Shown in pieces: positions 25,745-43,629 of a DNA stretch of 64,000 nucleotides (its first letter is position 1; each line of letters starts with the position of its first letter). The position numbers were made by a program, and so were the translations under genes. Under the pieces are notes generated by a model that was not told the DNA's origin, did no database searches, and worked only from the letters and a program-made list of their open reading frames with translations. Source of the DNA: Candidatus Latescibacterota bacterium (lineage in GTDB: Bacteria > Latescibacterota > UBA2968); assembly GCA_965222605.1 (NCBI GenBank), contig OZ244960.1, forward strand, positions 4,224,001-4,288,000, written 5' to 3'.

Positions 25745-26914
25745 CTAAAACTTAAACGTTTTGCGTTCGGTTTGTTCAAGGGTTTGTGCGATGAGGGGGG
25801 CGAGGTCAAGCGTGGATTCGATTTCGCGGACTTTTTCCAAATTGGCACGCGTTTCGGGGTGTTTGGGTACAAAGACAGAGCAACAATCTTCGTAGGGTTC
25901 AATGGAGATTTGATATGTGCCGATGCGCCGTGCTTCGTTGATGATTTCTTCTTTGTTGTCACCGGCCAATGGGCGCAAGATGGGCAGTGGGGTCACTTCT
26001 TCGATGGCGCGCATGTTCGACAGGGTTTGCGAGGCGACCTGTCCGACATTTTCGCCTGTGACAAGTGCCTGGGCATCTACTTTTTCGGCTATAGCTTCTG
26101 CAATGCGCAACATGGCGCGGCGGTAGAGAATGACGCGGTAGCTCGCAGGTGCTTGCGTCATGATGTGGCGTTGAATTTCGACAAATGGCACCAGGTAGAG
26201 GTCAGACACATATTGATGCCGGGTGAGGAGTCGTACGAGGTCTTCGGTGTTGCGCTGGGAATTGCGATTGGTATAAGGCTGGCTGTGAAAATGTACATAA
26301 GTGAGTTTGACACCGCGTTTCATAATTTTGTAAGAAGCCACGGGTGAGTCAATGCCCGAAGATAGGAGGCTTACGGCGCGTTCATTGGATCCGACGGGCA
26401 AACCCCCTGGGGCAGGGATTTTTTCGGCGTAGATAAATATGCGTTGTGGGGCAATTTCAATAAAACAAATGAGGTCTGGGTTGTCCATCAGGACGCGGGC
26501 ACCCGACAGGGTTTGAATATGCTTGCCCACATCCCGGTTGATTTGATCTGAATTGAGGGGAAAGGTTTTGTCGCCGCGTCTGGTGACAATTTTGAAGGAT
26601 TGAAAGTCGGCTTTTTGTGCAAGTATCCAGGCTGTTTCTCGAATGGCTTCGATATTGCGTTTGGCCACGACTGCTTCGGAAAAGTTGGCGATGCCAAAGA
26701 CTGTTGAGAGCCGTTCTCGGATTACATCTATCGGCGATTCTGAAGTGAGTGCGAGCATCATGCGGCCCGATAGACGCTCGAGCTTTCCACAGGGCACATC
26801 TTTGAGTGCGCGGTTGATGTTGATCATCAGACGCCGTTCAAATCTGCCCCGATTTTTGCCTTTGAGGCCAATTTCGTGATAGTGTATGAGCATGAAGCAG
26901 TTGTTGGTCATCAT
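25745..26914 (-). CDS. thiI: tRNA 4-thiouridine synthase ThiI (no rhodanese domain)
   Basis: EIGLKGKNR..FE, THUMP domain, GGLPVG, LLS.GIDSPVA, TGE..GQVASQT, RPL, EDCC motifs. Confidence 0.93.
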   Translation of the reverse strand: MMTNNCFMLIHYHEIGLKGKNRGRFERRLMININRALKDVPCGKLERLSGRMMLALTSESPIDVIRERLSTVFGIANFSEAVVAKRNIEAIRETAWILAQKADFQSFKIVTRRGDKTFPLNSDQINRDVGKHIQTLSGARVLMDNPDLICFIEIAPQRIFIYAEKIPAPGGLPVGSNERAVSLLSSGIDSPVASYKIMKRGVKLTYVHFHSQPYTNRNSQRNTEDLVRLLTRHQYVSDLYLVPFVEIQRHIMTQAPASYRVILYRRAMLRIAEAIAEKVDAQALVTGENVGQVASQTLSNMRAIEEVTPLPILRPLAGDNKEEIINEARRIGTYQISIEPYEDCCSVFVPKHPETRANLEKVREIESTLDLAPLIAQTLEQTERKTFKF

Positions 26915-26930
26915 TTTTATATGAGATGGG

Positions 26931-28496
26931 TTAGGGATTAGTGGATAGGTCGCGTTGGAGAATAACGAGGGTTATATCGTCGGTGCGCCGCGCTTTGCCA
27001 ATAAAAGATTTGACATCGGCGACGAGGTCGGCAATCAAATCTGTGGGTTTCTGATCTATGGATGCGCGTTCGAGGCAACGAATAAATCGGTCGTCGTCAA
27101 AGAAGTTGCGTTTGGCATTTTGGGCTTCGACAACACCATCGGAGTAGAGCACGAGGCGATCACCGGGCGCGAGTGTTAAATGCACAACGCGATAGGGGGT
27201 TTGGGGGCGCACAAGTGCCGGGATCCCAAGGGGATATCCCGCGAGGTCGATAAATTGAGATCTGTTGGAAAGATGGATCGGTGGACAGTGTCCTGCACTT
27301 GCAAGCGTGACTTTGCCGGTGGGTACGTCGAGCACAGCGATGCAGCATGTGATAAATGTGGCATGGTCAATCTGACCTTCCAGTGAGTCATTAAGACCGT
27401 CGAGAATATCGGCTGGCGCAACGCGATTTTGGCATTCATAGCGGAGCATTTCATTGAAACGCACGGCGGTCACGGCTGCTTCCATGGCTTTGCCAGAGAC
27501 ATCGGCAACGACAATGCCGAGTTTTGTTTTGTCTTCATCCAACCAGCGGTATGCATAGTAATCCCCCCCGACGCTGTTGGCGGGAATACACGTTCCGTCG
27601 AGTGCATAACCAGGCAGGTCAGGACTGGATTGCGGCAACAGACCCATTTGCATGTCGTGTGCTGTTTGCAATTCATCGCGCATTTCCGAAAATTGTTGTT
27701 TGTAGCTCTCCCACTGTCGCGCTTCTTCGCAGAGGGTCTGGTTATAGGCCGATGCAAAAATCCCGAATGCGAGGGGTTGAAAGAGGACGAAGACACAGAG
27801 TGTGGCTAAGGCATTGTCGGCGATGCCCCTGGTGAGAGCGACCGAGCCTATAAGAATTCCGAGCGCGGTAAGTATAAGCGCGCAGTGGCGAAAGAAACCG
27901 TAGCGTTCAACGGCTTTGCGACTTTCGACATAGGCTTCATCAATGTGTACCCCCCGGTCTGCTGCCAGAAGATAGATGTAGAAGCATTTGATAACAAAAA
28001 CGAGGCCGGGCAAAAATAAGAGGCAAGCTGCCAGAATGACGGCCCAAAAAATATTTTTTTCTTCTAAGAATTTTCCAATGTGTTCTGATCCAATGGGGAT
28101 GATCCAGGGCGTTTTCTGGGTAACTACCTGTTTGAATGCATTGAGCAGAAATGCAAAGAAATCGCTGCTCATAAAAACCAGTACCGCAATGATGATAAAG
28201 CCGAGAATAAAAAACAGGAAGATAAAAATATTCATCGAAAAAAAACGGACGAAACGAATGATCTGTCCAAATAGATCTCGCATAGAGGGTTGTTCCCCTT
28301 GTTGCGCGCGCAAGATCATGATGGCAAAGCCCGCATATAAGCTACCCAGGAGCAAAGTGCCCGATATCGCACTCAGGAGTATTGCCAAAAATGAAGCGAG
28401 ACACAAAATGGGTAGGTGACTCGCCCAGGAGGATATGCTGTCGTTGAGACAGCGAAGGTATTGGAGATTTGCCCGAACGGGGATATCGAGAGCCAT
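26931..28496 (-). CDS. Membrane-bound PP2C/SpoIIE Ser/Thr phosphatase
   Basis: N-terminal multi-TM domain (DUF975-like pattern). EL..A..MQ..LLP, VGGDYY, ADVSGK, SAGH, YSDG..EA and DD.T motifs. Confidence 0.88.
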   Translation of the reverse strand: MALDIPVRANLQYLRCLNDSISSWASHLPILCLASFLAILLSAISGTLLLGSLYAGFAIMILRAQQGEQPSMRDLFGQIIRFVRFFSMNIFIFLFFILGFIIIAVLVFMSSDFFAFLLNAFKQVVTQKTPWIIPIGSEHIGKFLEEKNIFWAVILAACLLFLPGLVFVIKCFYIYLLAADRGVHIDEAYVESRKAVERYGFFRHCALILTALGILIGSVALTRGIADNALATLCVFVLFQPLAFGIFASAYNQTLCEEARQWESYKQQFSEMRDELQTAHDMQMGLLPQSSPDLPGYALDGTCIPANSVGGDYYAYRWLDEDKTKLGIVVADVSGKAMEAAVTAVRFNEMLRYECQNRVAPADILDGLNDSLEGQIDHATFITCCIAVLDVPTGKVTLASAGHCPPIHLSNRSQFIDLAGYPLGIPALVRPQTPYRVVHLTLAPGDRLVLYSDGVVEAQNAKRNFFDDDRFIRCLERASIDQKPTDLIADLVADVKSFIGKARRTDDITLVILQRDLSTNP

Positions 28497-28501
28497 AACA
28501 A

Positions 28502-29911
28502 TCAGGGTTTTTCTTTGTTGAGTCTGTATTTGCGGTACAGGTGACGAAATTGGTCGTAACTGAGTTTGAGTTGTTTGGCGGCTTCGCGCTGGTTCCAGGA
28601 GACTTTATTGAGAATGCGCCGCAATAGACTCATTTCAAAGGATTGCACTTGTGATTCAAAGCCGTCGCTCGATTCGGATGATTGGGGCGCTTGTTGAGAA
28701 ACTTCGGGGGGCAGGTCGCCGGATTCAATCTCAGTTCCACGGGCAACACAGGCTGCGCGTTCGGTCGCAAATTTGAGTTCGCGCACATTTCCCTGCCAGC
28801 TATATGTCATCAGGCGTTTTGTTGCCGCATCGGAAAAATTGCGTTGTTGAAGGCCTGGTACTTCCTCAACGATTTGCGCGACAAAATAATCGGCTAACGC
28901 GGGAATGTCTTCGCGGCGTTCGCGCAATGGGGGCATGTGCAAGACTTCAAAGCGCAATCTGTCGTAGAGGTCCTGGCGGAATCGGCCTTCGGCAATTTCC
29001 GTTTCGAGATCGGTATTTGTGGCGGCAATAACGCGCACATCGACAAAGATGGGTGTCGCGCTGCCCACGCGCTGTATTTCGCTATATTCAATGGCGCGCA
29101 ATACGTTTTGCTGAAATTCGGGGGTGGTGTTGCCAATTTCATCGAGGAATAGGGTACCGCCACTTGCGGCTTCAAATTTGCCCGGGCGGGCTTCTGTCGC
29201 GCCCGTATAAGCCCCTTTTTCGTGTCCAAAGAGTTCGCTTTCAAGCAATTGGTCGGCAATGGCAGCGCAATTGACTTTGACAAAGGGACGGTCTTTGCGG
29301 TCACTGCCATAGTGGATAGCAGCGGCGACGAGTTCTTTGCCCGTTCCGGGTTCGCCCGTGATGAGCGCGGGCCGGGGGATGGGGGCTACGGTTTGCGCTC
29401 GCTGGAGAATTTGCTGGAGTTTGGGGCTGGAGCCGATGATTTGATAACGCTTGCCAAATTCGTTTCGGTAGAATTGGTTTTCGCGCCCCAGATCCTGGAC
29501 TTCGGCCCGCAGTTGGGCGTTTTCCTTAAGTGCTTGATACACGCGGTCGAGTTTTTCAAGGCTGAGTTCGATTTTGTCTTCGATGTAAAAGTCTTTTTCA
29601 ATAAAGTCTGTTGCGCCCAATCGCAATGCAGCCACGGCAGTATCTATTGTGCCCTGGCCGGTAAGCATAATGACGGGCAGGTCGGATACTACTTTGAGCA
29701 TTTGCGGTAAAATTTCGAGGCCATCGGGTTCATCGGGGCCATAATCGAGGTCGAGAATGGCCAGGCTAATCTGATTGGGATGCTGTTTGAGATATGCCAG
29801 GGCTTCGCGTCCGGTAGAGAAGGCATGGACGGTGCGCGTGTCGTCTCGCAGGCTTCGAATCAGCATGTCGAGGACTTCAATCTGGTCGTCAGCAACGATA
29901 ATTTCGGTCAT
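28502..29911 (-). CDS. Sigma54-dependent response regulator (REC + PspF-like AAA+ + HTH)
   Basis: REC domain (ADD..LDL..MLTG..EK), GEPGTGKEL, ELFGHEKGAYTGA, LFLDEIG, DRL.F.V. C-terminal NQ..AA..L.L.Y.QFR HTH. Confidence 0.9.
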   Translation of the reverse strand: MTEIIVADDQIEVLDMLIRSLRDDTRTVHAFSTGREALAYLKQHPNQISLAILDLDYGPDEPDGLEILPQMLKVVSDLPVIMLTGQGTIDTAVAALRLGATDFIEKDFYIEDKIELSLEKLDRVYQALKENAQLRAEVQDLGRENQFYRNEFGKRYQIIGSSPKLQQILQRAQTVAPIPRPALITGEPGTGKELVAAAIHYGSDRKDRPFVKVNCAAIADQLLESELFGHEKGAYTGATEARPGKFEAASGGTLFLDEIGNTTPEFQQNVLRAIEYSEIQRVGSATPIFVDVRVIAATNTDLETEIAEGRFRQDLYDRLRFEVLHMPPLRERREDIPALADYFVAQIVEEVPGLQQRNFSDAATKRLMTYSWQGNVRELKFATERAACVARGTEIESGDLPPEVSQQAPQSSESSDGFESQVQSFEMSLLRRILNKVSWNQREAAKQLKLSYDQFRHLYRKYRLNKEKP

Positions 29912-29933
29912 GGGAGAAATATTGGAAAGGATC

Positions 29934-31196
29934 TTATTGAATAAATTCTTCAGCTATTGGATCGCGCGAGGTGTCGGGGACGCTGTGTTGCAGGCCAATG
30001 CTGTCTTGTTGTGTTGAGACTTCAAAATCGACGGGCAGGTCAATGCGAAAAACCGCGCCTGCACCCGGCCGGCTGATCACGCGCAGTGTGCCGCGGTGTG
30101 CCGCGGCAATGCGAGAGCATATACTCAGCCCATATCCATTGCCCCGTTCCCGCGTTGAAAATCCGGGGTCAAATATGCGGGTTTGCAAATTTTCGGGAAT
30201 GCCGGGGCCATTGTCTTCCACTTCAATATAGACCGAACTGCGTTCTGTATCGGCGCCGACCTGTACTGTCACCTTGCCAGTATCTTCAACGGCTTCGATG
30301 GCGTTGAGGGTCAGGTTTGTGACGGCTTCAGATAACATGCCTGCGTCCGCTTTTACCTGAGGTACATGAGGTTCGGCGGCAAAGGCGAGTTCTTTTGTCC
30401 CTGCTCGTGCAGAGAGTTTATGGGTCATCTTTGCAATGAGTTGGGGGACATCGACCAACGCGGGGTTCATGGTGTCTTGTTTCATAGACCGCAAGTAGGC
30501 GACCCATTGGTTGTAGATGTGTTCTTGTTCGTGTGCGATGTCTTTTAGATCATCCAGGCCGTCGGTATTTGGAGGTAAATTGCGTATGGCGCGGCGCATT
30601 CGGCTGCCGGAGAGACCCATCAGGTTTTTGATGCGGTGGCCGTGCGTGTAGAGGCTTTCATAGACCTGTGCGCGGCCCAGGTCTATGAGTTCGAGAGAGA
30701 GCCGCGCGAGAATGCCCGGTGCTCTAAGGCCAAATTCTTCGGTGATGCTTGCATATTCGCGTTCCATTTGTGTCGAACTCATGTGGTGAAAGAGCAATCG
30801 GGCGAGATTGCCATAGGGCAGCATGTAATCGGGTTCGAGATGTATGGCGATTTTAAACTCGCCAAGTGCCGATAAAATTTGCCCATTTTGCATGAGCAAA
30901 ACGCCCAGGTTGTTGTGCCCGGGCGCAAAGAGTGGATCGGCTTCTAAACCCCGGCGGTAAACGGCAATGGCTCGATATGTGTTTTCCGGAAAGTCATCGA
31001 GCAGGCTGCCCAACAAAAAACAGACGCGATCAATGAGGGCATGGCCCTCGCCCTGGTCACTGACAGTTAGGATGTATTCGAGGTGTTCAACCGCTTTTTT
31101 GTAGTCGTCCGAACCCGGTGTTGCCCTGCGTGCGTGTTGCAGGGCTATTTGGAAACGGGATTCCAGGTCGGGGGTTGTGTTCAGGGTGTTGGCCAT
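29934..31196 (-). CDS. Cytoplasmic TPR-containing sensor histidine kinase
   Basis: TPR helices (A...HNNLG.LL...G....A..EF..AI.L.P), H-box HRIKN, N box NL..NA, G1 DNGPGI, F box, G2 G.GLS. No TM segment. Confidence 0.85.
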   Translation of the reverse strand: MANTLNTTPDLESRFQIALQHARRATPGSDDYKKAVEHLEYILTVSDQGEGHALIDRVCFLLGSLLDDFPENTYRAIAVYRRGLEADPLFAPGHNNLGVLLMQNGQILSALGEFKIAIHLEPDYMLPYGNLARLLFHHMSSTQMEREYASITEEFGLRAPGILARLSLELIDLGRAQVYESLYTHGHRIKNLMGLSGSRMRRAIRNLPPNTDGLDDLKDIAHEQEHIYNQWVAYLRSMKQDTMNPALVDVPQLIAKMTHKLSARAGTKELAFAAEPHVPQVKADAGMLSEAVTNLTLNAIEAVEDTGKVTVQVGADTERSSVYIEVEDNGPGIPENLQTRIFDPGFSTRERGNGYGLSICSRIAAAHRGTLRVISRPGAGAVFRIDLPVDFEVSTQQDSIGLQHSVPDTSRDPIAEEFIQ

Positions 31197-31218
31197 GGCT
31201 GTACTTGCGCGTTTTAGA

Positions 31219-32739
31219 CTATGTCTGTGCGTCTTCTGAGGTATCGGATTTGCCGTTTTCCCCGGAGGCTTGTTCGCCGCTCATTTTGCCCAAAAATTCG
31301 GGCAATTCAAGCCCGGCCAGACGCGCCAGATCGTGCATGGGCGGTATGGCACCCATGAGGCGTTGTCCCAGGTTGGACATGCCACTGTCGCCATTGCCGC
31401 TATCCCAGACCATCACTTTGTCGATGGGCAAGTTGCTAATGGCTTCGGCCTGGATGTTGGCGACTTCGGTGAGGCGTTCGATGATCAGGAAGGCCGCTGC
31501 TGCCTGGTCTTTGTTACCACAGGCTTCAACGAGTTGTCTGTATCCTTCGGCCTTGGCGTTGAGTATGGCCTGAGTCCCCTGGGCTTCGGCCTGTTTTTGT
31601 GCGAGAATGGCAGCGGCTTCACCCTCGGCAACAAGGCGTCGCTGTTCTTTTTCGGCTTCTGCTTGGACGACCTGGCGTTGCTTTTCGGCTTCTGCTTGAA
31701 CGACGATTTCTGCGCGTAAGCGCGCTTCTTCGCGCAGTGCCCGGGCTTCTTCGGCTACTTTTTCTGCGATTTCCTGGGCGACGCGAACGGCGCCGTCAGT
31801 GGCTTTGGTCGCTTCTTCTGCTTTTCGGCGCGCTTCTTCTTCTGCAACGCGTTGTCCTGCGCGATAGCCGGCTGTTTTTGCTTCTGCTTCTGTTTCTGAT
31901 TGTACGGCTTCGGCTTCGAGAGCCGCGACATTTTGGCGTTTGTCTCGCCCGGCTTTAGCTTCGCCAATTTCAGCTTCTGATTCGAGTGCTGCGACTTGTC
32001 GTCGTCTGTTTCGCGTTGCTTGGGCTTCGCCGATGTCGGCCTCTGACTCGGCTGCGGCGACCTCCCGACGGCGATCGCGTGCGCGTTCGGCTACACCAAC
32101 CTGACCATGCCTATCTTGTTCGGCCACGTCAATGGATGCCTGGTTGATGGCTTCGGCTGCTGCTTTTTGGCCGATGGCTTTGATGTAGCCGCTTTCGTCG
32201 TCGATGTCTTTGATGTTGACGTTGATAACAGAGAGGCCAATTTTTTCCATTTCGGTGGAGACGGCTTCATTTACTTTGGCCATAAATGCCTGCCGGTCCT
32301 GGTTGATTTCTTCAATTTTCATGGTTGCAATGACTGCGCGCATCTGGCCGAGGATGATGTCTTGTGCCTGGCTTTGAACTTTTTCGCGGGATAGGCCCAG
32401 GAGGCGGATGGCCGCGTTGTGCATGATGCCGGGTTGATTGGAGATGGCTGCTGTGACTGTGGTGGGCACGGATACGCGGATGTTTTCCTGTGAAAGCGCG
32501 TTGTCCAGGTCGATGGGCACGACAAAGGGTTCGAGGTCGAGGTACTCGTAGTCCTGCAATAGGGGCAGGACAAAAGCTGCGCCACCGTGTACACATTTTG
32601 CGGCTGTGCCACCTCCTGTTTTGCCGTAGATGACGAGAATTTTGTTAGATGGGCAGCGCTTGTAACGCGAGATGAATGTGAGGAATAGCAGAAGTACGAC
32701 GGCTGCCAGGATGACGGTGAGAATGAATTCGGTGGGCAT
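31219..32739 (-). CDS. Flotillin/SPFH (band 7) family protein
   Basis: N-terminal TM, RYKRCPSN.ILV.YG, SPFH domain and AEA-rich coiled coil with three 22-aa repeats. Start MPTEF after a GGAGG RBS. Confidence 0.92.
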   Translation of the reverse strand: MPTEFILTVILAAVVLLLFLTFISRYKRCPSNKILVIYGKTGGGTAAKCVHGGAAFVLPLLQDYEYLDLEPFVVPIDLDNALSQENIRVSVPTTVTAAISNQPGIMHNAAIRLLGLSREKVQSQAQDIILGQMRAVIATMKIEEINQDRQAFMAKVNEAVSTEMEKIGLSVINVNIKDIDDESGYIKAIGQKAAAEAINQASIDVAEQDRHGQVGVAERARDRRREVAAAESEADIGEAQATRNRRRQVAALESEAEIGEAKAGRDKRQNVAALEAEAVQSETEAEAKTAGYRAGQRVAEEEARRKAEEATKATDGAVRVAQEIAEKVAEEARALREEARLRAEIVVQAEAEKQRQVVQAEAEKEQRRLVAEGEAAAILAQKQAEAQGTQAILNAKAEGYRQLVEACGNKDQAAAAFLIIERLTEVANIQAEAISNLPIDKVMVWDSGNGDSGMSNLGQRLMGAIPPMHDLARLAGLELPEFLGKMSGEQASGENGKSDTSEDAQT

Positions 32740-32755
32740 TGTGCCTCCTTTAAGT

Positions 32756-33361
32756 TCAGGATTGAATGGGTTCGACTTCAACGGTGGTTATGTCGAGTGT
32801 TCGCAGCACGCGAACCGGTGTCTTATTCTGGACGGGCTGCCCGTCTTTGCTGCGCGCAGAGATGTAGTTAACAGCACCACTTTCCATCACGCGGATTTGA
32901 CCGGCGCCATTTTCGGGGATGTCCATATAGACTTCGCCTTCATTGCCAATACAGGACGATAGGTTTCGGTTATGCGATTCGGAGAGTTGCTGCACTTTGT
33001 AGAAGAAGTAGGCAACCAGGACCATCCCCGCGCCGCCCCATACGAGACCGCGAAGAACCGACTCTTCGATTGAGAGACCCAGGTCGAGGTAGAGTGCGCT
33101 GGCCCATCCAAAGAGCATGCCAAAGGCTATTACAGAACGCAGTGAGAGCAGTTGAAAGGTGGCGGCACCGTGATCATAAGGACTATTATCGACATCTGGT
33201 CCTGCATCGTTGGCATTGAAGTCGTCGGCAAGGCCATCTGCGGAATCACCCAGGCCGATGAGTGTCGTGATAAATTGCCAGAGAAACAAAAGGGTGAAGA
33301 AGACTGCACAGCCATAGAATGCCTGAGTGAGAGGCGCGAGTTCTGACCACCATGCCTGCAT
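32756..33361 (-). CDS. NfeD/YqiJ-like membrane protein (flotillin partner)
   Basis: TM segments plus C-terminal OB-fold pattern IG..G.VY..IP....GQI.V. Lies directly upstream of the flotillin gene. Confidence 0.8.
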   Translation of the reverse strand: MQAWWSELAPLTQAFYGCAVFFTLLFLWQFITTLIGLGDSADGLADDFNANDAGPDVDNSPYDHGAATFQLLSLRSVIAFGMLFGWASALYLDLGLSIEESVLRGLVWGGAGMVLVAYFFYKVQQLSESHNRNLSSCIGNEGEVYMDIPENGAGQIRVMESGAVNYISARSKDGQPVQNKTPVRVLRTLDITTVEVEPIQS

Positions 33362-33461
33362 ATTAACCTCCAGAAATCGGACCGAAAGTTGCGCGTTCTA
33401 TCAACGACCTTTATGTTCCTACAATTTGTCTATGCAAAGAGCGAAAAGCAAGGGTTATTTC

Positions 33462-34052
33462 TTACCCGGGCTGTAAACCGAGTTTGCGAAATTCATTTTT
33501 GAGTTGGCGGCGGGCGCGGCACAGCCAGGTTTTCACGGTTCCAAGCGGAACGCGAAGCGCCTGTGTGATTTCTTCGTAGGACCAGTCCATGACGTAGCGC
33601 AGCCACATGGCTTTGCGATAGCGTTCGGGTAAGTTTTGAATGCTTTTGTGGACCAATTGTATGCGTTCGCGTTTTTCGACTATTTGGTCTGGTAGCGTGC
33701 CGGGTATGAGGTCGCGGATGACGTTGTGTACGACTTCGGGGTCTTCGGTTTGACGGACCCAGTTTTGCCGAACTTGCTGCGAACGCAGGTGCGAGCGATA
33801 GACGTTGAGGGCAATTTGTGTGAGCCAGGTCGAAAATGCTGCTTTGCCTTTGAATGTGTGGAGCGAGCGATAGGCGCGAAAAAATGTGTCTTGCATCAGG
33901 TCGTCAATGGTGTCGCGGTCTGACATGCGCTGCGCGAGGGTGCCGTAGATTTGATTCTGGTATTTGTGGTAGAGTTTGTCAAAGGCTCGGCTGTCGCCCG
34001 AGAGGGATGCGCGAATCAGGTTTTGATCCTGTGTTTTCACTTTTTTCTCCAT
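33462..34052 (-). CDS. ECF RNA polymerase sigma factor
   Basis: GD..AF..LY, DL.QDTF.RAY..L..F.G...FSTWL..IA.N, region 4 SY.EI...L.VP.GTVK..L.RAR. Confidence 0.93.
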   Translation of the reverse strand: MEKKVKTQDQNLIRASLSGDSRAFDKLYHKYQNQIYGTLAQRMSDRDTIDDLMQDTFFRAYRSLHTFKGKAAFSTWLTQIALNVYRSHLRSQQVRQNWVRQTEDPEVVHNVIRDLIPGTLPDQIVEKRERIQLVHKSIQNLPERYRKAMWLRYVMDWSYEEITQALRVPLGTVKTWLCRARRQLKNEFRKLGLQPG

Positions 34053-34110
34053 TCGTTAAGATGATTTGTTTATTACTATTCTTTGGCTTGTGACAAGACG
34101 GATTTTTCCG

Positions 34111-34284
34111 TCAGTCTTCTCTTTTGATCAAGCGATAACCGATCCCAATACATATAACGGCGATGGCGAGTTTGACCAGGAGAAAGATTAGCCCAAATAG
34201 AGAGCCGATGAGCGGGAAGAGAATCTGGATGGCGAAAATGCCGCCGATGACGATGAGTACGATGCCGATGAGTTTGGCCAACAT
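34111..34284 (-). CDS. Small 2-TM membrane protein (57 aa), PspG/LiaI-like
   Basis: Below the ORF-track cut-off. MLAKLIGIVLIVIGGIFAIQILFPLIGSLFGLIFLLVKLAIAVICIGIGYRLIKRED*, with an AAAGGA RBS upstream. Confidence 0.75.
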   Translation of the reverse strand: MLAKLIGIVLIVIGGIFAIQILFPLIGSLFGLIFLLVKLAIAVICIGIGYRLIKRED

Positions 34285-34322
34285 GGGATGTCCTTTTTAT
34301 TTCTGAGGTGTGAGGTTGTCCG

Positions 34323-34685
34323 TCAATCCGAGATGGTCGGCGGAGGTGAAGATGACTTAACGGGTGAGCGGCCTTCGAGACGCTCAAGTTTGTCATCGTT
34401 GGTGATGACGATGTCTTGAAGGTCGGTGAGGCGGCTTTCAAGTTCTTTCACGCGTTTTGAAAGTTTTTCAGACAGGTTGTTGTTTTTTGTCGATCTGTTT
34501 CTTTTTTCTTGTTCTGATCCAAATGTGAATGTGATGGCAAAAAAGGTAATGAACGCCATAGCACCCCAGGCTGCTGCAAGGACGAGGCCTCCTCCAAATG
34601 TTGGGTCATGGAGAATATAGGCGACTGTACCGCTTGCAAGAGTCATCAAGCTAATACCAACTACGATTGTGAGAAAGATGCGCAT
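34323..34685 (-). CDS. Membrane protein with PspB-like C-terminal coiled coil (2 TM)
   Basis: GGAGG RBS and two TMs. Tail RVKELESRLTDLQDIVITNDDKL is shared with the two upstream ORFs. Confidence 0.7.
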   Translation of the reverse strand: MRIFLTIVVGISLMTLASGTVAYILHDPTFGGGLVLAAAWGAMAFITFFAITFTFGSEQEKRNRSTKNNNLSEKLSKRVKELESRLTDLQDIVITNDDKLERLEGRSPVKSSSPPPTISD

Positions 34686-34707
34686 GGTGCCCTCCCGATA
34701 GTTTAAG

Positions 34708-34929
34708 TTAGCGCGCAATAGGCGATCGGTTGAGTTTGTCGTCAATAGCAATTATGACGTCCTGAATGTCCGTGAGCCTGCGATCGAGTTCGTCCATTCT
34801 TGCATTCAAGCGTTCTTCCGCATTGCTGGGGATGGAGCCTTTGGTGCGGCGATCAATAAATTTGTGTACCGCTGATACAATGGCCCCTACAATGATGATC
34901 ATCAATATGCCGCCAATAACATCAGTCAT
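34708..34929 (-). CDS. PspB-like small membrane protein (1 TM + coiled coil)
   Basis: GGAGG RBS; N-terminal TM; ERLNARMDELDRRLTDIQDVIIAIDDKL. Confidence 0.75.
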   Translation of the reverse strand: MTDVIGGILMIIIVGAIVSAVHKFIDRRTKGSIPSNAEERLNARMDELDRRLTDIQDVIIAIDDKLNRSPIAR

Positions 34930-35080
34930 GGTATCCCTCCCTTATCTTCTGCTGAGTTTTTCGTCAATGGTGATCATGACGTCTTGAATGTCCGTGAGCC
35001 TGCGGTCGAGTTCGTCCATTCTGGCGTTTATGCGTTCTTCTGCATCGCTGGGGATGGATCCTCGGGTGCGGCGTTCGATG
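34740..35080. repeat. Tandem gene duplication (two ~115-bp near-identical segments)
   Basis: ATGACGTC(C/T)TGAATGTCCGTGAGCCTGCG(A/G)TCGAGTTCGTCCATTCT...GCTGGGGATGGA occurs at about 34754 and about 34976. Confidence 0.8.
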
Positions 35081-35139
35081 TATTTGTATGCCGCTGATGC
35101 GAGAATGATTATCGCAACCATGATTCCAATTTCAAACAT
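34942..35139 (-). CDS. PspB-like small membrane protein (1 TM + coiled coil)
   Basis: GGAGG RBS before ATG 35139; ERINARMDELDRRLTDIQDVMITIDEKL. Near-duplicate of 34708-34929. Confidence 0.75.
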   Translation of the reverse strand: MFEIGIMVAIIILASAAYKYIERRTRGSIPSDAEERINARMDELDRRLTDIQDVMITIDEKLSRR

Positions 35140-35160
35140 TATTTTTCCCTCCCACACATA

Positions 35161-35817
35161 TTAAAGTTCATCCACGGGTCTCGCGCGGTATTTTTCATCC
35201 CAGCGTTCGATTTCCGGAAAATGGTAAACGACCATTCCCGAATCTGAGATTCGCATTTCCGCATGACCACTTATGGTTAATTCTCGCAGGATTTCTTCGG
35301 TTTTTTCAACTGTTATTCTAGTGTCTGTCGCGGCTTCTATCACGGTGAGACTGCCCCCTTTTTCCCGGGCGAGACGGAGGATGCGGTGCTGATTTTTGGC
35401 ATGTGCTTTTTCGTCTCCCGATCTTTTGACCCGGCGACCTGCCCACCATATAATCTGAGAGATGATGATTAGCACGAGACCACCACTGAGTTTTTCAAGC
35501 ATTGTACTATTGCCCGAGGGGGTATATTCTACCAGTGCAATGAGTACGAGCATGAGGCCGCAAAATCCCATAAGTGCAGCCATTCCTATTAAACCATAAG
35601 CGAAGAGATAACGCATGGCACAACTCCCATCGGTGGCGAGATCAGAGAGGCGGTCGGGCACTCGCTTGAATGAATTGATTTGGAAATCGCTGCTCGCGCT
35701 GTGAACGCGCGCCTCCCAATTCCCCTTCCATTTCTTTTTTATTTTTCGCTCTGCGTCGTTGACCGCGCGGTCAATTTTGCTGGCGATTTCATCGGCGAGT
35801 TTTTCCAGGTCACGCAT
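35161..35817 (-). CDS. Membrane protein with N-terminal coiled coil, 2 TM and C-terminal winged-helix-like domain
   Basis: C-terminal ILRLAREKGG.LT..EAA....I......E.L.EL...G.....SDSG..VY.F pattern. Start overlaps the pspA stop. Confidence 0.7.
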   Translation of the reverse strand: MRDLEKLADEIASKIDRAVNDAERKIKKKWKGNWEARVHSASSDFQINSFKRVPDRLSDLATDGSCAMRYLFAYGLIGMAALMGFCGLMLVLIALVEYTPSGNSTMLEKLSGGLVLIIISQIIWWAGRRVKRSGDEKAHAKNQHRILRLAREKGGSLTVIEAATDTRITVEKTEEILRELTISGHAEMRISDSGMVVYHFPEIERWDEKYRARPVDEL

Positions 35818-36487
35818 CTTTTTGTCCCATTTTCTGTTTCAGCGCATTGAGTTCGTCTTCTACTGTGCTTTTGCGCTCGAGTTTGGAAAATTCTTCTTCT
35901 AAAGAGGGGTCACCACTCGCCATCTCTTGATGGGCTTCGGCTTCGGCTTCTTCGGTTTCGATGCGCTGGCGGAACCGCTCAAAGCTCGAAAATGCGTCGT
36001 CACCCACCCCTGAGAGACCCCTGGCGATTTGCTTGCGGGCTTCGGCTGCACGGCGGCGTGCAATCAGGGTGCCCTGGCGGGTGCGAGCTTCGTCGAGTTT
36101 GACTTTGAGTTGGGTGAGTTGTTGCTTGAGTTGGGACGAGGTTTTACGGCTTTCTTCGAGGGCTATTTCAAGGTCGCGCGTGGCTTCCTGGGTTGCAGCT
36201 TTGCGCTCGAGGGCGCGGCGAGCAAGGTCGTCCTCGCCTGCTTCAACAGCCAATTCGGCTTTTTTTTGCCAGGCCTCGATCTGATCTTGTTTTTCGAGAT
36301 ATTGTCTTTCCAGACGTTTTTCATTGGCAACAGCCGTGCCGACCGAGGCGGTGGCTTTGTTGACGGCTTCTTCCATTTCCAGAATCATCTGGTGGATCAT
36401 TTTTTCGGGGTCTTCTGCGCGGGTAATCAGGTCGTTGACGTTGGCTTTGACGATGTCGGCCATTCTGTAAAAAATTCCGCGTGCCAT
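35810..36487 (-). CDS. pspA: Phage shock protein A (PspA/IM30)
   Basis: GIF.R..DIVKAN.N.LI..AEDPEKM..Q.I.EME, W..KA.LA...G.DDLAR.AL, F..FER, EL..LK motifs. Confidence 0.95.
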   Translation of the reverse strand: MARGIFYRMADIVKANVNDLITRAEDPEKMIHQMILEMEEAVNKATASVGTAVANEKRLERQYLEKQDQIEAWQKKAELAVEAGEDDLARRALERKAATQEATRDLEIALEESRKTSSQLKQQLTQLKVKLDEARTRQGTLIARRRAAEARKQIARGLSGVGDDAFSSFERFRQRIETEEAEAEAHQEMASGDPSLEEEFSKLERKSTVEDELNALKQKMGQKDA

Positions 36488-36557
36488 GATCTACTCCTTT
36501 CACAAGGTGCTGCATTTATGGGGGATTCTGATGTTTTTTGCTGACGCACCCTTTTTA

Positions 36558-36573
36558 TGCAAAGTCTGTGCCA
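36558..36573 (-). promoter_or_regulatory. Sigma54 (-24/-12) promoter of pspA
   Basis: Minus strand TGGCAC-AGACT-TTGCA matches the consensus with correct spacing, about 70 nt upstream of the pspA ATG. Confidence 0.88.
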
Positions 36574-36649
36574 AGAAGGGTATATGATATTAAATGTTGT
36601 TTTTCATATATATAGATGTTTTCGAGGAAATGGGATAGATCGATAAAGT

Positions 36650-36708
36650 TGGGAAAAATTACCATGTGTTCTGGCGAGATTAACCAAGTGTCTGTCCCAA
36701 ATTTTCCA
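36650..36708. promoter_or_regulatory. Putative upstream activator sites for the bEBP
   Basis: TGGGAAAAATTACCA (36650-64), TGGCGAGATTAACCA (36672-86) and GTCCCAAATTTTCCA (36694-708) are exactly 22 bp apart. An AT-rich spacer separates them from the sigma54 site. Confidence 0.55.
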
Positions 36709-36836: not shown

Positions 36837-38321
36837 ATGTTTCGATATATCCGAGTGTCTTTATTGGCCTGCTTCCTTTTGTCGTGTGCAGCACATGCGC
36901 CTGCTTTAACAGAGACTTATGTGGTGCAAAGAGGGGATTCTCTGTGGGAAATTGCCGATCAGTTTTCCATGAGTGTGACTGAACTCAAGCGGATCAATGG
37001 GTTGAGATCGCATCACATTTATCCCGGACAAAGGCTGCTCATTCGCTCACAGGGGCTTAGCATTCGCTCCTCCAGTGGAGTAGAATACGTGGTGAGAAGG
37101 GGGGATTCGCTCTCTAAAATCGCCGCGCGGTTTTCTATGAGTGTGACCGAGCTCAAGCGGATCAATGGGTTGAGATCGAATCAAATCTATCCCGGACAAA
37201 AGCTTCGCACTCGCGCTTATGTAGCGCAACAATCTCGCACTCGCACTTATACTGTGCAACAGCCTCGCACCCGTCCCTCTCTTAGCCATGTAGAAATGGA
37301 ATATGTGGTGAGAAGGGGGGATTCGCTTTCTAAAATTGCCGCGCAATATTCCATGGGCCTGACCGAACTCAAGCGGAGCAATGGCATCAGATCGGATCGC
37401 ATTTATGTGGGACAAAGGTTAAAGATACGGACTCGGCTGAAAAAGATCGCAATGGATAATGGACCGTATTATTTTTCTCGTCCCAAAGCCGCTGTGCAAC
37501 GCAGTCGGGGATATCGGGAAGTGCCCCCCAAAAAGCCGATTGAAGATTATAGGAATGCCCAAAATTTGATGGGCGTGTTTAATACAAATATTACTATGCG
37601 TCGAGATAGCAGATCACAGACGTTGAGAGGCTGGCGCATTGTGCTTGACCCTGGGCACGGGGGACGCGACCCGGGTGCTATTGTTTCCAATTTAGATGGT
37701 AACAACAGTTCGGTTTATGTGGTTGAAGACGAATTTGTTTACGATATTGCGTTGCGTTTGTACCAAAAGCTGAGGCTTGCAGGTGCCGAGGTGGAGATGA
37801 CGGTGATTAGTCCAAATCATCTCATTCGAGAAAATAATCCGCCGACGAGGACGTTTGTACACGAGCAAAATGAAGTCTATAACGATGCAAGTGTCAACAG
37901 AAGAAATAGTCTTTCGGTGCGTCCAGGGCTTCACAATATTGCGCAACGGGTGAAAATTGCCAACCGATTCTTTGCAAGGCGCGGGAAGACTCTATTTATA
38001 TCGCTGCATGCAGACAACAGTCCCAATCGCCCAAAAGGTCCGCTGGTTATTTATTGGAGCAGGCGGGGAAAGATTGATTCGCGGTCCCGGTCATTTGCGC
38101 GGATTATGGAAAGGGCACTTGATCTGCCAGATGTGCCGGCACAAATTGGTGGGCGCAATCTGGCGGTGTTGCGGGGCAATCTGGCGCAAGCAGAAATTCT
38201 GGTGGAGATACGCAATGTACACGATAAAGGCGAGGCCTGGGCGTTGCGATCTCACAAGATACGCGACTCCGACGCGGATCGAATTTTGCGCGGGATATTA
38301 AATTACGCGAAGAGGTATTAG
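36837..38321 (+). CDS. N-acetylmuramoyl-L-alanine amidase (Amidase_3) with three LysM domains
   Basis: Signal/lipoprotein-like N-terminus and three YVV.RGDSL..IA....M...ELKR.NG LysM repeats, near-identical at DNA level. LDPGHGG.DPGA, E, SLHAD and LVE motifs. Confidence 0.9.
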   Translation: MFRYIRVSLLACFLLSCAAHAPALTETYVVQRGDSLWEIADQFSMSVTELKRINGLRSHHIYPGQRLLIRSQGLSIRSSSGVEYVVRRGDSLSKIAARFSMSVTELKRINGLRSNQIYPGQKLRTRAYVAQQSRTRTYTVQQPRTRPSLSHVEMEYVVRRGDSLSKIAAQYSMGLTELKRSNGIRSDRIYVGQRLKIRTRLKKIAMDNGPYYFSRPKAAVQRSRGYREVPPKKPIEDYRNAQNLMGVFNTNITMRRDSRSQTLRGWRIVLDPGHGGRDPGAIVSNLDGNNSSVYVVEDEFVYDIALRLYQKLRLAGAEVEMTVISPNHLIRENNPPTRTFVHEQNEVYNDASVNRRNSLSVRPGLHNIAQRVKIANRFFARRGKTLFISLHADNSPNRPKGPLVIYWSRRGKIDSRSRSFARIMERALDLPDVPAQIGGRNLAVLRGNLAQAEILVEIRNVHDKGEAWALRSHKIRDSDADRILRGILNYAKRY

Positions 38322-42618: not shown

Positions 42619-43629
42619 ATGGATCGTTTTAAGGATATCGGAGAGTTCGGTTTTATTGATCGCATTGCCGCGCACGCACAGCGCAATCGGGTTCTGTGTG
42701 GGATTGGAGATGATTGTGCTGTTATGGCAGCCGGGCAGGAGCGCGTGCGATTGGTGACGGTTGATGCGATGGTTGAGGGCATCCACTTTGTGCCGCATGC
42801 ACCGCCAGAAGGCGTGGGGTACAAATTACTGGCTGCGAGTTTGTCCGATATGGCCGCTATGGGTGGGAAACCGACGGATGCTGTTGTGGCGGTTAGCGTG
42901 TCGGGTGATTGTGATGCGGGTTATGTCGAGCGGATTTACAACGGGCTTTTTGTCTGTGCAGATCGGTTTGATGTGGCTGTTGTGGGTGGTGATACAACGC
43001 GCACGTCTGGTGCGCTGGTTTTGAGTTTGACGCTTACAGGTGAGATGGCGCAAGATCAGGTGTGTTATCGGTCTGGCGCGCAAGTGGGTGATGCCGTCTA
43101 TGTATCGGGCACGTTGGGCGATGCTGCGGGTGGTTTGGGGGTGGTATTGAGTGATGTCGATCTGCCGGGCAAGATGCGAACCGCGTTGTTACAAAGGCAT
43201 TATCGACCTGAGCCTCGGTTGGATTTGGGACTGGCGTTGGCGGAAACAGGGGCAGTGACAGCGATGATCGATGTGTCGGATGGGTTGGCTTCGGATTTGA
43301 GCCATATTTGCCAGCAAAGTGGTGTGTCGGCTGTGATTCGAGCAGCGGCGATTCCCATGTCGCGAGCGTTTATAAAATTTTGTGAAGTGAGTGGTGAAGA
43401 GAAATTGGATCTTGCACTCACTGGAGGGGAAGATTTCGAGTTGCTATTTTCTGTGTGTCTCACACAGGTCAATAAGGTGGAGGCATTGGCAGAGGCGTAT
43501 TCGATTTGTCGCATTGGCGAGATTGTGGCTGGCGATGGCTGTGTGATGATAGAAGGTGAGGATGGAAAGCGCGTGCCATTGGAACAGTTGGGTTATGATC
43601 ATTTTGGAGGGGAGTCGCCAGGGGGCTGA
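42619..43629 (+). CDS. thiL: Thiamine-monophosphate kinase
   Basis: GEFGFI, GIGDDCA, D..VEG.HF, SD.AAMGG, GGDT, RSGA..GD, D.SDGL, GGEDFEL, GY.HF motifs. Confidence 0.95.
   Translation: MDRFKDIGEFGFIDRIAAHAQRNRVLCGIGDDCAVMAAGQERVRLVTVDAMVEGIHFVPHAPPEGVGYKLLAASLSDMAAMGGKPTDAVVAVSVSGDCDAGYVERIYNGLFVCADRFDVAVVGGDTTRTSGALVLSLTLTGEMAQDQVCYRSGAQVGDAVYVSGTLGDAAGGLGVVLSDVDLPGKMRTALLQRHYRPEPRLDLGLALAETGAVTAMIDVSDGLASDLSHICQQSGVSAVIRAAAIPMSRAFIKFCEVSGEEKLDLALTGGEDFELLFSVCLTQVNKVEALAEAYSICRIGEIVAGDGCVMIEGEDGKRVPLEQLGYDHFGGESPGG

Follow-up and report, generated by a model that had tools for sequence, protein, structure and literature searches.

We analysed a stretch of 64 kb (hereafter, the window) from a Candidatus Latescibacterota bacterium (contig OZ244960.1, positions 4,224,001 to 4,288,000), in which twelve genes headed by pspA form a string on the minus strand, between positions 26931 and 36487. 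An original prediction, made from the sequence alone, had described this string as an extended phage-shock-protein (Psp) cluster with its own two-component system, and all twelve open reading frames (ORFs) were found at the coordinates that it had claimed, in the same orientation. The genes overlap or are separated by 3–100 nt; the largest gap, of 100 nt, lies ahead of an nfeD-like gene, and the remaining ones are of 3–58 nt or are overlaps. A 13th co-oriented gene, thiI, lies 16 nt beyond the last gene of the string, which encodes a membrane phosphatase of the PP2C type. The protein families, the promoter and the conservation described below support a Psp-type cluster that carries a His-Asp signalling system of its own and a sigma-54 promoter.

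Conservation was assessed in several sets of loci, from the family of the window's host and from two other families, called here the second and the third. The largest set comprised 47 loci, mainly from metagenome-assembled genomes of Candidatus Latescibacterota, with a few filed as Gemmatimonadota, 'bacterium' or Myxococcales. Another set of 20 order-level loci, whose genomes are partly shared with the former, was chosen among 52 for genus spread and long contigs, and ten loci from the third family were chosen among 50 positives for long contigs.

The consensus sigma-54 promoter that had been proposed ahead of pspA was confirmed, both as a perfect match and by its conserved position in relatives. 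The −24/−12 element TGGCACAGACTTTGCA (36558–36573, minus strand) is the sole perfect TGGCAC-N5-TTGCA in the window, and lies 70 nt ahead of the pspA ATG. Because looser matches are no commoner than in shuffled sequence (three sites with one mismatch in the window, against 3.05 expected), the site draws its weight from position and conservation, not from counts. In a 450-nt scan, 44 of 47 rows showed a −24/−12 site with two mismatches or fewer, 54–94 nt ahead of pspA; two of the remaining rows have three mismatches at the same place, and in one the contig is cut. All ten loci of the third family also have the site, 48–95 nt ahead of pspA and perfect in six of them. As a background, 3000 random pieces of the same genome, each of 300 nt, were scanned, and 5.5% contained a site with two mismatches or fewer, a value that would be somewhat higher over the 450 nt of the scan. 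The genome contains a single copy of rpoN.

Sigma-54 seems to be heavily used in this genome, which holds 148 sites with one mismatch or none, and 23 perfect sites followed by an ORF of at least 60 aa starting 15–160 nt downstream; by eye, one of these ORFs resembles a small heat-shock protein (near 6206539) and two resemble response regulators. A one-mismatch site, TGGCACGCGCTTTCCA, is also present elsewhere in the window (43563–43578, minus strand).

Further upstream, a block at 36649–36687 (minus strand), of the form TTGGT-N6-CGCCAG-N7-TGGnA...CCAA and with a GCCA/TGGC inverted repeat, is the only one conserved when the upstream regions of 18 loci from the same genus are aligned, with divergent flanks. 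The block lies about 75–115 nt upstream of the −24 element and its inner core occurs only once in the 6.3-Mb genome at up to one mismatch. This is the layout expected of an enhancer for a dedicated activator, and we consider the block a candidate enhancer to which the bacterial enhancer-binding protein (bEBP) encoded in the string would bind. A degenerate −24/−12-like element 126 nt upstream of the promoter was discarded as a conserved feature, with only three of the 18 genus loci having it; its −24 copy, TTGGGACAGAC (36690–36700, minus strand), looks like a recent local duplication. Divergently from pspA, the window encodes an N-acetylmuramoyl-L-alanine amidase with three LysM domains (36837–38321, plus strand), whose gene has stayed next to pspA in both families with the sigma factor described below and not in the third.

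The first gene, pspA (35810–36487), encodes a 225-aa PspA/IM30 protein, an ESCRT-III-like effector that matches PF04012 over residues 4–220 (1.7e-46; 159 bits, cut-off 33.9) and scores 177 bits with TIGR02977, under the equivalog cut-off; identity among 22 orthologues is 61–96%. The next gene (35161–35817) has an 8-nt overlap at its start with the end of pspA, and lies behind pspA in all loci examined. Its product, of 218 aa, matches no Pfam or NCBIfam family, and its AlphaFold2 model (predicted local distance difference test score, pLDDT, 74.6) begins with a cytoplasmic helix, continues with a hairpin of two long membrane helices and closes with a winged helix, this C-terminal domain being its most conserved portion; we thus call it TM-WH, for transmembrane winged helix. 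The top Foldseek matches of the model are winged-helix regulators of the MarR, ArsR and IclR types, and an ESCRT-II winged helix appears at rank 35 among many others, all of them at E > 1e-3. TM-WH was present in 52 of 61 relatives, and a profile search across the phylum retrieved it from 101 of 168 genomes; these concentrate in families f1 (29/30), f2 (21/22) and f3 (50/76), with none in eleven other families (0/39).

The genome has two further pspA paralogues. One is part of a CesT_Tir_1, PspA and DUF4178 string (G000:C1:4520872-4524233; locus L132, 5872–9233) with a divergent spermine-synthase gene, which fits the CesT/Tir-PspA polyamine neighbourhood of the main text of Ravi et al. 2024 (PMC11237479). 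The other (G000:C1:4065454-4066122; locus L133, 6454–7122) has an upstream sigma-54-like site, TGGCATAAATATTGCA, and two genes downstream for proteins without a Pfam family.

Behind the TM-WH gene there are three genes for small membrane proteins, of 71 aa (34942–35157), 73 aa (34708–34929) and 120 aa (34323–34685, counted from the ATG at 34685 of an ORF that is open to 34751). The three are true paralogues, each with one or two N-terminal transmembrane segments and a helix with an invariant RLTDIQD..ID.K motif: the first has a single such segment followed by a cytoplasmic helix, the second is its paralogue, and the third has two segments and reads RLTDLQD. Copy number varies from none to five per locus, and in the third family the proteins occur in nine of the ten loci, with at most two matches per locus. 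They had been labelled PspB-like, and we could not uphold this as homology: none matches PspB in Pfam or NCBIfam, their hidden Markov model reached just 7 bits on PspB when run against four E. coli Psp proteins, and hhalign gave a probability of 9.9% against a shallow alignment of enterobacterial PspB sequences (at least 82% identity), over which a deeper profile might do better. The resemblance is thus one of build. In turn, the statement that no recognizable pspC is present was borne out, since neither PspC (PF04024) nor PspB (PF06667) was detected above cut-off in the cluster or in the whole genome.

The two signalling genes lie towards the end of the string. The histidine kinase (29934–31196; 420 aa) matches HATPase_c (2.3e-25, 89.6 bits) and, above cut-off, TPR_17. 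Like PspA and the bEBP, it has no hydrophobic segment, as expected for a soluble protein. Residue H187, within a YTxGHxxKN motif, is invariant in 22 orthologues, as are N294/N298, D328-G330-G332 and G352-G354-G356 of the N, G1 and G2 boxes. In the window's genus the kinase is shortened to 420 aa, and most relatives have about 540 aa, with extra N-terminal TPRs. In two families the kinase ends with a conserved acidic stretch, ...P(I/L)AEEFI(E) (29934–29960 in the window), which the third family lacks; a TPR domain, perhaps that of the kinase itself, might bind this stretch as a ligand.

The activator (28502–29911; 469 aa) is a REC-AAA+-HTH bEBP with matches to Response_reg (2e-16), Sigma54_activat (7e-65) and AAA_lid_14, and a weak one to HTH_8 that is under the cut-off (E = 0.005). 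Aspartates D8/D9 and D54 of the receiver, the Walker A motif and the GAYTGA loop can be read from its sequence. The protein is 42% identical to E. coli PspF across the AAA+ and HTH parts, with the C-terminal HTH also aligning, and PspF is its best NCBIfam model (342 bits, cut-off 443), followed by NtrC (336) and NifA (335). Residue W56 of PspF, which we take to be its contact with PspA, is aligned with a lysine in the bEBP, a change that fits the loss of direct control by PspA.

The remaining genes of the string separate the small-protein genes from the kinase gene, or follow the activator gene. A protein of 57 aa with two hydrophobic segments (34111–34284) matches no Pfam or NCBIfam family, and is followed by an extracytoplasmic function (ECF) sigma factor of 196 aa (33462–34052), without hydrophobic segments and with Sigma70_r2 and Sigma70_r4_2 above their cut-offs (TIGR02937, 106.6 bits against 42.9). 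In 42 of 44 loci, the homologue of the 57-aa protein ends directly ahead of the ECF gene, and in the other two there is an insertion between them. Insertions of 1.5–2.7 kb occur in the clusters of L036 (11663–13241), L037 (6402–7920) and L038 (11262–14001), either at this junction or after the TM-WH gene. It had been claimed that the string lacks an anti-sigma factor. Indeed, no anti-sigma domain was found by Pfam at E ≤ 0.1 in any cluster protein, and the 57-aa protein is too small for a classical one; nevertheless, its nearly constant place beside the ECF gene makes it a candidate partner, so the claim stands for known domains only.

After the 100-nt gap, the string continues with a 201-aa membrane protein (32756–33361) and a flotillin-type SPFH protein (31219–32781) of 520 aa when counted from a TTG (alternative start, ATG at 32739). 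The latter is well supported by Band_7 (1.7e-27; 97 bits, cut-off 23.6) and by a full-length match to the NCBIfam FloT model (167 bits, under the equivalog cut-off of 700), and has a single N-terminal transmembrane segment, at residues 19–37. The former can be labelled NfeD/YuaF/YqiJ-like only weakly: it scores 16 bits with PF01957, under the cut-off of 29.1, although five of nine orthologues match at E ≤ 0.1; its pairing with the flotillin is strict. The protein had no sequence match in the PDB, its neighbours in the Atlas, named NfeD, YqiJ_OB and NfeD_TM, serve as leads only, and its AlphaFold2 model (pLDDT 59.6; 40–55 in the C-terminal domain), with three helices followed by beta strands, was too poor for a search. 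The last gene (26931–28496) encodes the membrane PP2C/SpoIIE phosphatase, of 521 aa, with PF07228 at residues 323–515 (1e-45; 156.5 bits against 25) and, from hydropathy, about seven hydrophobic segments N-terminal to this domain. In all, six of the labels in the original prediction (PspA, ECF sigma, flotillin, TPR kinase, REC-bEBP and PP2C) stand at Pfam gathering scores and that of TM-WH stands by fold; of the others that it rested on families, the NfeD label is weak and the PspB label described architecture alone.

Synteny is conserved in relatives, and the loss of synteny that had been named as evidence against the cluster was not what we found. Among the 20 order-level loci, pspA, TM-WH and the kinase were present in all, the bEBP and the ECF sigma factor in 19 each (the locus without a bEBP being at a contig end), nfeD and flotillin in 11 and PP2C in nine. 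In the set of 47, kinase and activator were missing solely from three truncated contigs and from the Myxococcales fragment. The genes nfeD and flotillin occur together in 35 of these loci and never apart, and PP2C is found in 22, all from the window's own family; in the second family, other genes take its place between the activator and thiI. In the third family, all ten loci combine pspA with the kinase, the activator and a TM-WH gene of reduced length, and none has ECF, NfeD, flotillin or PP2C. The twelve genes are thus not conserved as one circuit, and the original view is only partly right, since solely pspA, TM-WH, the kinase and the bEBP are universal. The string is a five-gene core (pspA, TM-WH, the small RLTDIQD proteins, the soluble TPR kinase and the REC bEBP), found in three families, plus three later modules, a history that follows from the differences in gene content among the families. 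The 57-aa and ECF genes are a two-gene insertion, added in two of the three families and not part of the core, and nfeD-flotillin comes and goes as a pair. Together, our comparisons establish the identity and order of the genes, the promoter, their conservation across three families and the modular history of the string.

Contigs from RNA libraries, obtained from four runs of three studies and 90–99% alike to the window, cover the cluster and bridge its junctions. One of them, of 6051 nt (26221–32195), reaches from thiI through PP2C, bEBP and kinase into flotillin, and others join flotillin, nfeD and ECF; ECF, the 57-aa gene and small protein 3; and small protein 1, TM-WH and pspA. Contig ends and uncovered stretches were not taken as transcript ends. 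RNA runs labelled as sponge metagenomes hold near-identical sequence (7 of 21 pieces at least 99% alike), and the host lineage is uncultured and associated with sponges. One relative in the RNA runs is devoid of small proteins 2 and 3, with a joint at 34348/34957. Sites resembling intrinsic terminators numbered 21 in the cluster, close to the 16.9 expected from shuffles, and none falls in a minus-strand intergenic gap.

Our preferred interpretation, to which we give a probability of roughly 0.6, is that the string works as a self-activating Psp-type envelope-stress operon, with a sigma-54 promoter and its own two-component system, in which His-Asp signalling replaces the direct control of PspF by PspA. 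The soluble TPR kinase would autophosphorylate on H187 and transfer the phosphate to D54 of the bEBP, which would then bind the conserved upstream element and open the sigma-54 promoter ahead of pspA. Because kinase and activator lie downstream of this promoter in the same gene string, activation would amount to positive feedback. Since no part of the kinase is in the membrane or the periplasm, we infer that its TPR domain reads a protein partner, likeliest PspA and/or TM-WH (the latter translationally coupled to pspA), which are favoured because they are the only other universal members. The negative feedback that PspA exerts on PspF in E. coli would here be shifted to a phosphorelay through the kinase. 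The small RLTDIQD proteins may have a PspB-like role in membrane signalling, by architecture and not by homology. The 57-aa and ECF genes would add another layer of transcription, dependent on the first for its output, and a cascade from sigma-54 to ECF is plausible from gene order; a GGAAC-N17-CGC-like string before nfeD, tried as an ECF promoter, was dropped as unconserved in same-genus variants. Finally, nfeD-flotillin would form another scaffold at the membrane, perhaps transcribed from a promoter of its own, and the membrane PP2C would be a later addition in the window's family. A complex prediction with residues 1–172 of the kinase (TPR), 135–218 of TM-WH and PspA, in three chains unlike the calibration, scored 0.76, 0.73 and 0.73; one control with an unrelated partner scored 0.57, the required margin of 0.20 was missed and the result was not used.

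Several observations weigh against this interpretation. The kinase has no HisKA match in Pfam, so the assignment of its dimerization and histidine-phosphotransfer (DHp) part rests on the motif around H187. The bEBP scores about as high with NtrC and NifA as with PspF and is not callable as a PspF orthologue, and the replacement of W56 by lysine, as read from the alignment, also leaves no documented link to PspA. Homology of the small proteins to PspB is unsupported by Pfam, NCBIfam, the genome scan and hhalign, and the full-length loci L082 and L084 keep the kinase with no detectable small proteins, which therefore are not its universal input. The TM-WH family is also found in 45 of 301 Myxococcota genomes, and 14 such loci (L118-L131) have no pspA within 8 kb (0/14). 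The RNA-library contigs are consistent with expression of the cluster and no more, as they cannot show a single transcript, its strand or its start, and DNA carry-over is possible. Lastly, the gap ahead of nfeD contains TTGACA-N18-TATCAT in L073, L076 and L098, and a conserved TTGAC...TAT(A/G)TCACA block in the second family, promoter-like motifs that suggest separate transcription of nfeD-flotillin.

These conserved motifs in the 100-nt gap, together with the gain and loss of nfeD-flotillin as a unit, lend some weight to a string made of several independent transcription units: pspA with TM-WH and the small proteins, transcribed from the sigma-54 promoter; nfeD-flotillin, from a promoter of its own; and kinase-bEBP, with or without PP2C and thiI, from a weak constitutive promoter. 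If this were the case, there would be neither a sigma-54-to-ECF cascade nor positive feedback. Tight spacing is in itself no proof of common control, given that the string is followed after 16 nt by thiI, a housekeeping gene with no relation to it. We nevertheless consider independent units rather unlikely, because all other gaps are of only 3–58 nt or are overlaps and the minus-strand gaps lack sites resembling intrinsic terminators. Moreover, the ECF gene has just 58 nt of upstream space in the window and overlaps the preceding gene in the second-family locus L046, and the RNA-library contigs, weak as this evidence is, bridge every class of junction.

A different possibility concerns TM-WH, which might be a membrane-tethered DNA-binding regulator or an anti-sigma-like partner, with the TPR kinase sensing something unrelated to PspA. 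Its C-terminal domain is modelled as a MarR/ArsR-type winged helix, and the Myxococcota relatives without pspA lie beside an HtrA/DegP-type protease in five of the 14 loci (four of them closely related), and in one the neighbour is a dynamin-family GTPase, surroundings that would fit a general regulator of envelope stress. In the same group, the best 30 PspA loci of 201 genomes showed no bEBP, kinase or TM-WH within 1.5 kb. Nonetheless, TM-WH cannot be the dedicated partner of the ECF sigma factor, because it is present in the ten third-family loci where ECF is absent, and its constant position behind pspA, with overlapping start and stop, also weighs against this possibility. On this balance, a regulator role of this kind seems doubtful to us.

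As to how the kinase might sense PspA within the self-activating operon, MIT domains grip the tails of ESCRT-III proteins, and ESCRT-II nucleates ESCRT-III. By analogy, the TPR kinase might gauge free PspA by gripping one of its helices, and TM-WH might act as an ESCRT-II-like nucleator that places PspA on the membrane. We regard this as a long shot; if true, feedback in this Psp system would run by His-Asp phosphorelay, and not by direct inhibition of the activator. Lastly, that this is an ordinary NtrC-type regulon merely beside pspA, with the promoter served by another activator, could be argued from the 23 perfect sigma-54 sites with a downstream ORF and from the sigma-54-like site of another pspA paralogue, but is very unlikely, because in three families every locus that is not truncated has inherited kinase and bEBP together with pspA, with varying genes in between, and the upstream element is unique to the pspA promoter.

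In the self-activating operon that we favour, as in the enterobacterial Psp system (pspF and the divergent pspABCDE), pspA is preceded by a sigma-54 promoter dependent on an AAA+ activator of its own, and is followed at once by genes for small membrane proteins of the single-pass type. The two differ in that PspF lacks an N-terminal regulatory domain, whereas the activator described here has a REC domain and a cognate kinase. PspF-type activators are indeed listed without an N-terminal domain in two papers (PMC3162934, PMC4641369). The regulator gene is divergent in enterobacteria and inside the operon here, there are no members of the PspB and PspC families, and the counterpart of W56 is a lysine.

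In Pseudomonas syringae, the HrpR/HrpS, sigma-54 and HrpL cascade likewise is a two-tier system, in which an ECF sigma factor without an anti-sigma of its own is expressed from a sigma-54 promoter. This cascade drives type III secretion, and HrpR and HrpS have no REC domains. Unlike hrpL, the ECF gene described here is within a Psp operon.

Two networks of Bacillus also bear on the cluster. The pspA and floT operons controlled by sigma-W place an ECF sigma factor and NfeD-flotillin in the same stress network. In the LiaIH-LiaFSR system, a PspA homologue answers to two-component signalling, as covered in the main text of PMC11237479. Lia differs in having a membrane kinase (LiaS), a REC-HTH regulator acting with sigma-70 (LiaR) and a membrane inhibitor (LiaF); here we find a soluble TPR kinase and a sigma-54 activator, with everything in one gene string, and no Pfam match to LiaI, LiaF-TM or Toastrack (DUF4097) domains at E ≤ 0.1 in the twelve proteins.

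Separate pieces of the cluster can be recognized in published surveys, as far as their main text goes. Popp et al. 2022 (PMC9239133) reported band-7 genes adjoining pspA in several phyla and histidine kinases in actinobacterial pspA operons, and gave Enterobacteriaceae as the sole group for which PspF has been described. Ravi et al. 2024 (PMC11237479) reported PspA with band-7/flotillin and YqiJ/YuaF, duplications of PspB, PspF variants with ACT or PAS domains, and classical two-component systems of a membrane kinase and a REC-HTH regulator, and left PspF and two-component systems out of the detailed analysis. Operons of the PspA-band-7/flotillin-YqiJ/YuaF type (PMC11237479) thus resemble the window in combining PspA with flotillin and NfeD-type genes; however, they are built on an AAA+ ATPase and a CesT/Tir-PspA dyad, two-component control through sigma-54 is absent from them in the text available to us, and the CesT/Tir-PspA dyad of this genome sits at a different pspA paralogue. 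The architecture of the window is not covered in the main text of either survey (PMC9239133, PMC11237479), and we found no pspA operon described in the literature that combines a TPR kinase with a REC-bearing activator of sigma-54, supplements and web applications being outside the scope of both statements. Within that scope, the surveys hold the pieces, and this wiring and the five-gene core are new.

Few model bacteria are those for which the switching of PspA-type ESCRT-III proteins has been worked out. The host of the system described here is uncultured, so its functional steps are predictions; the system is itself suited to reconstitution, and reassembly of the compact five-gene core in E. 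coli could reveal which signal reaches a cytoplasmic kinase upon membrane damage. With it, two unnamed protein families, TM-WH and the RLTDIQD mini-proteins, enter the field of envelope stress. For the Psp response at large, the cluster would mean that inputs can be wired anew under a promoter of unchanged type, the contact between PspA and PspF being replaced by a soluble kinase and a receiver.

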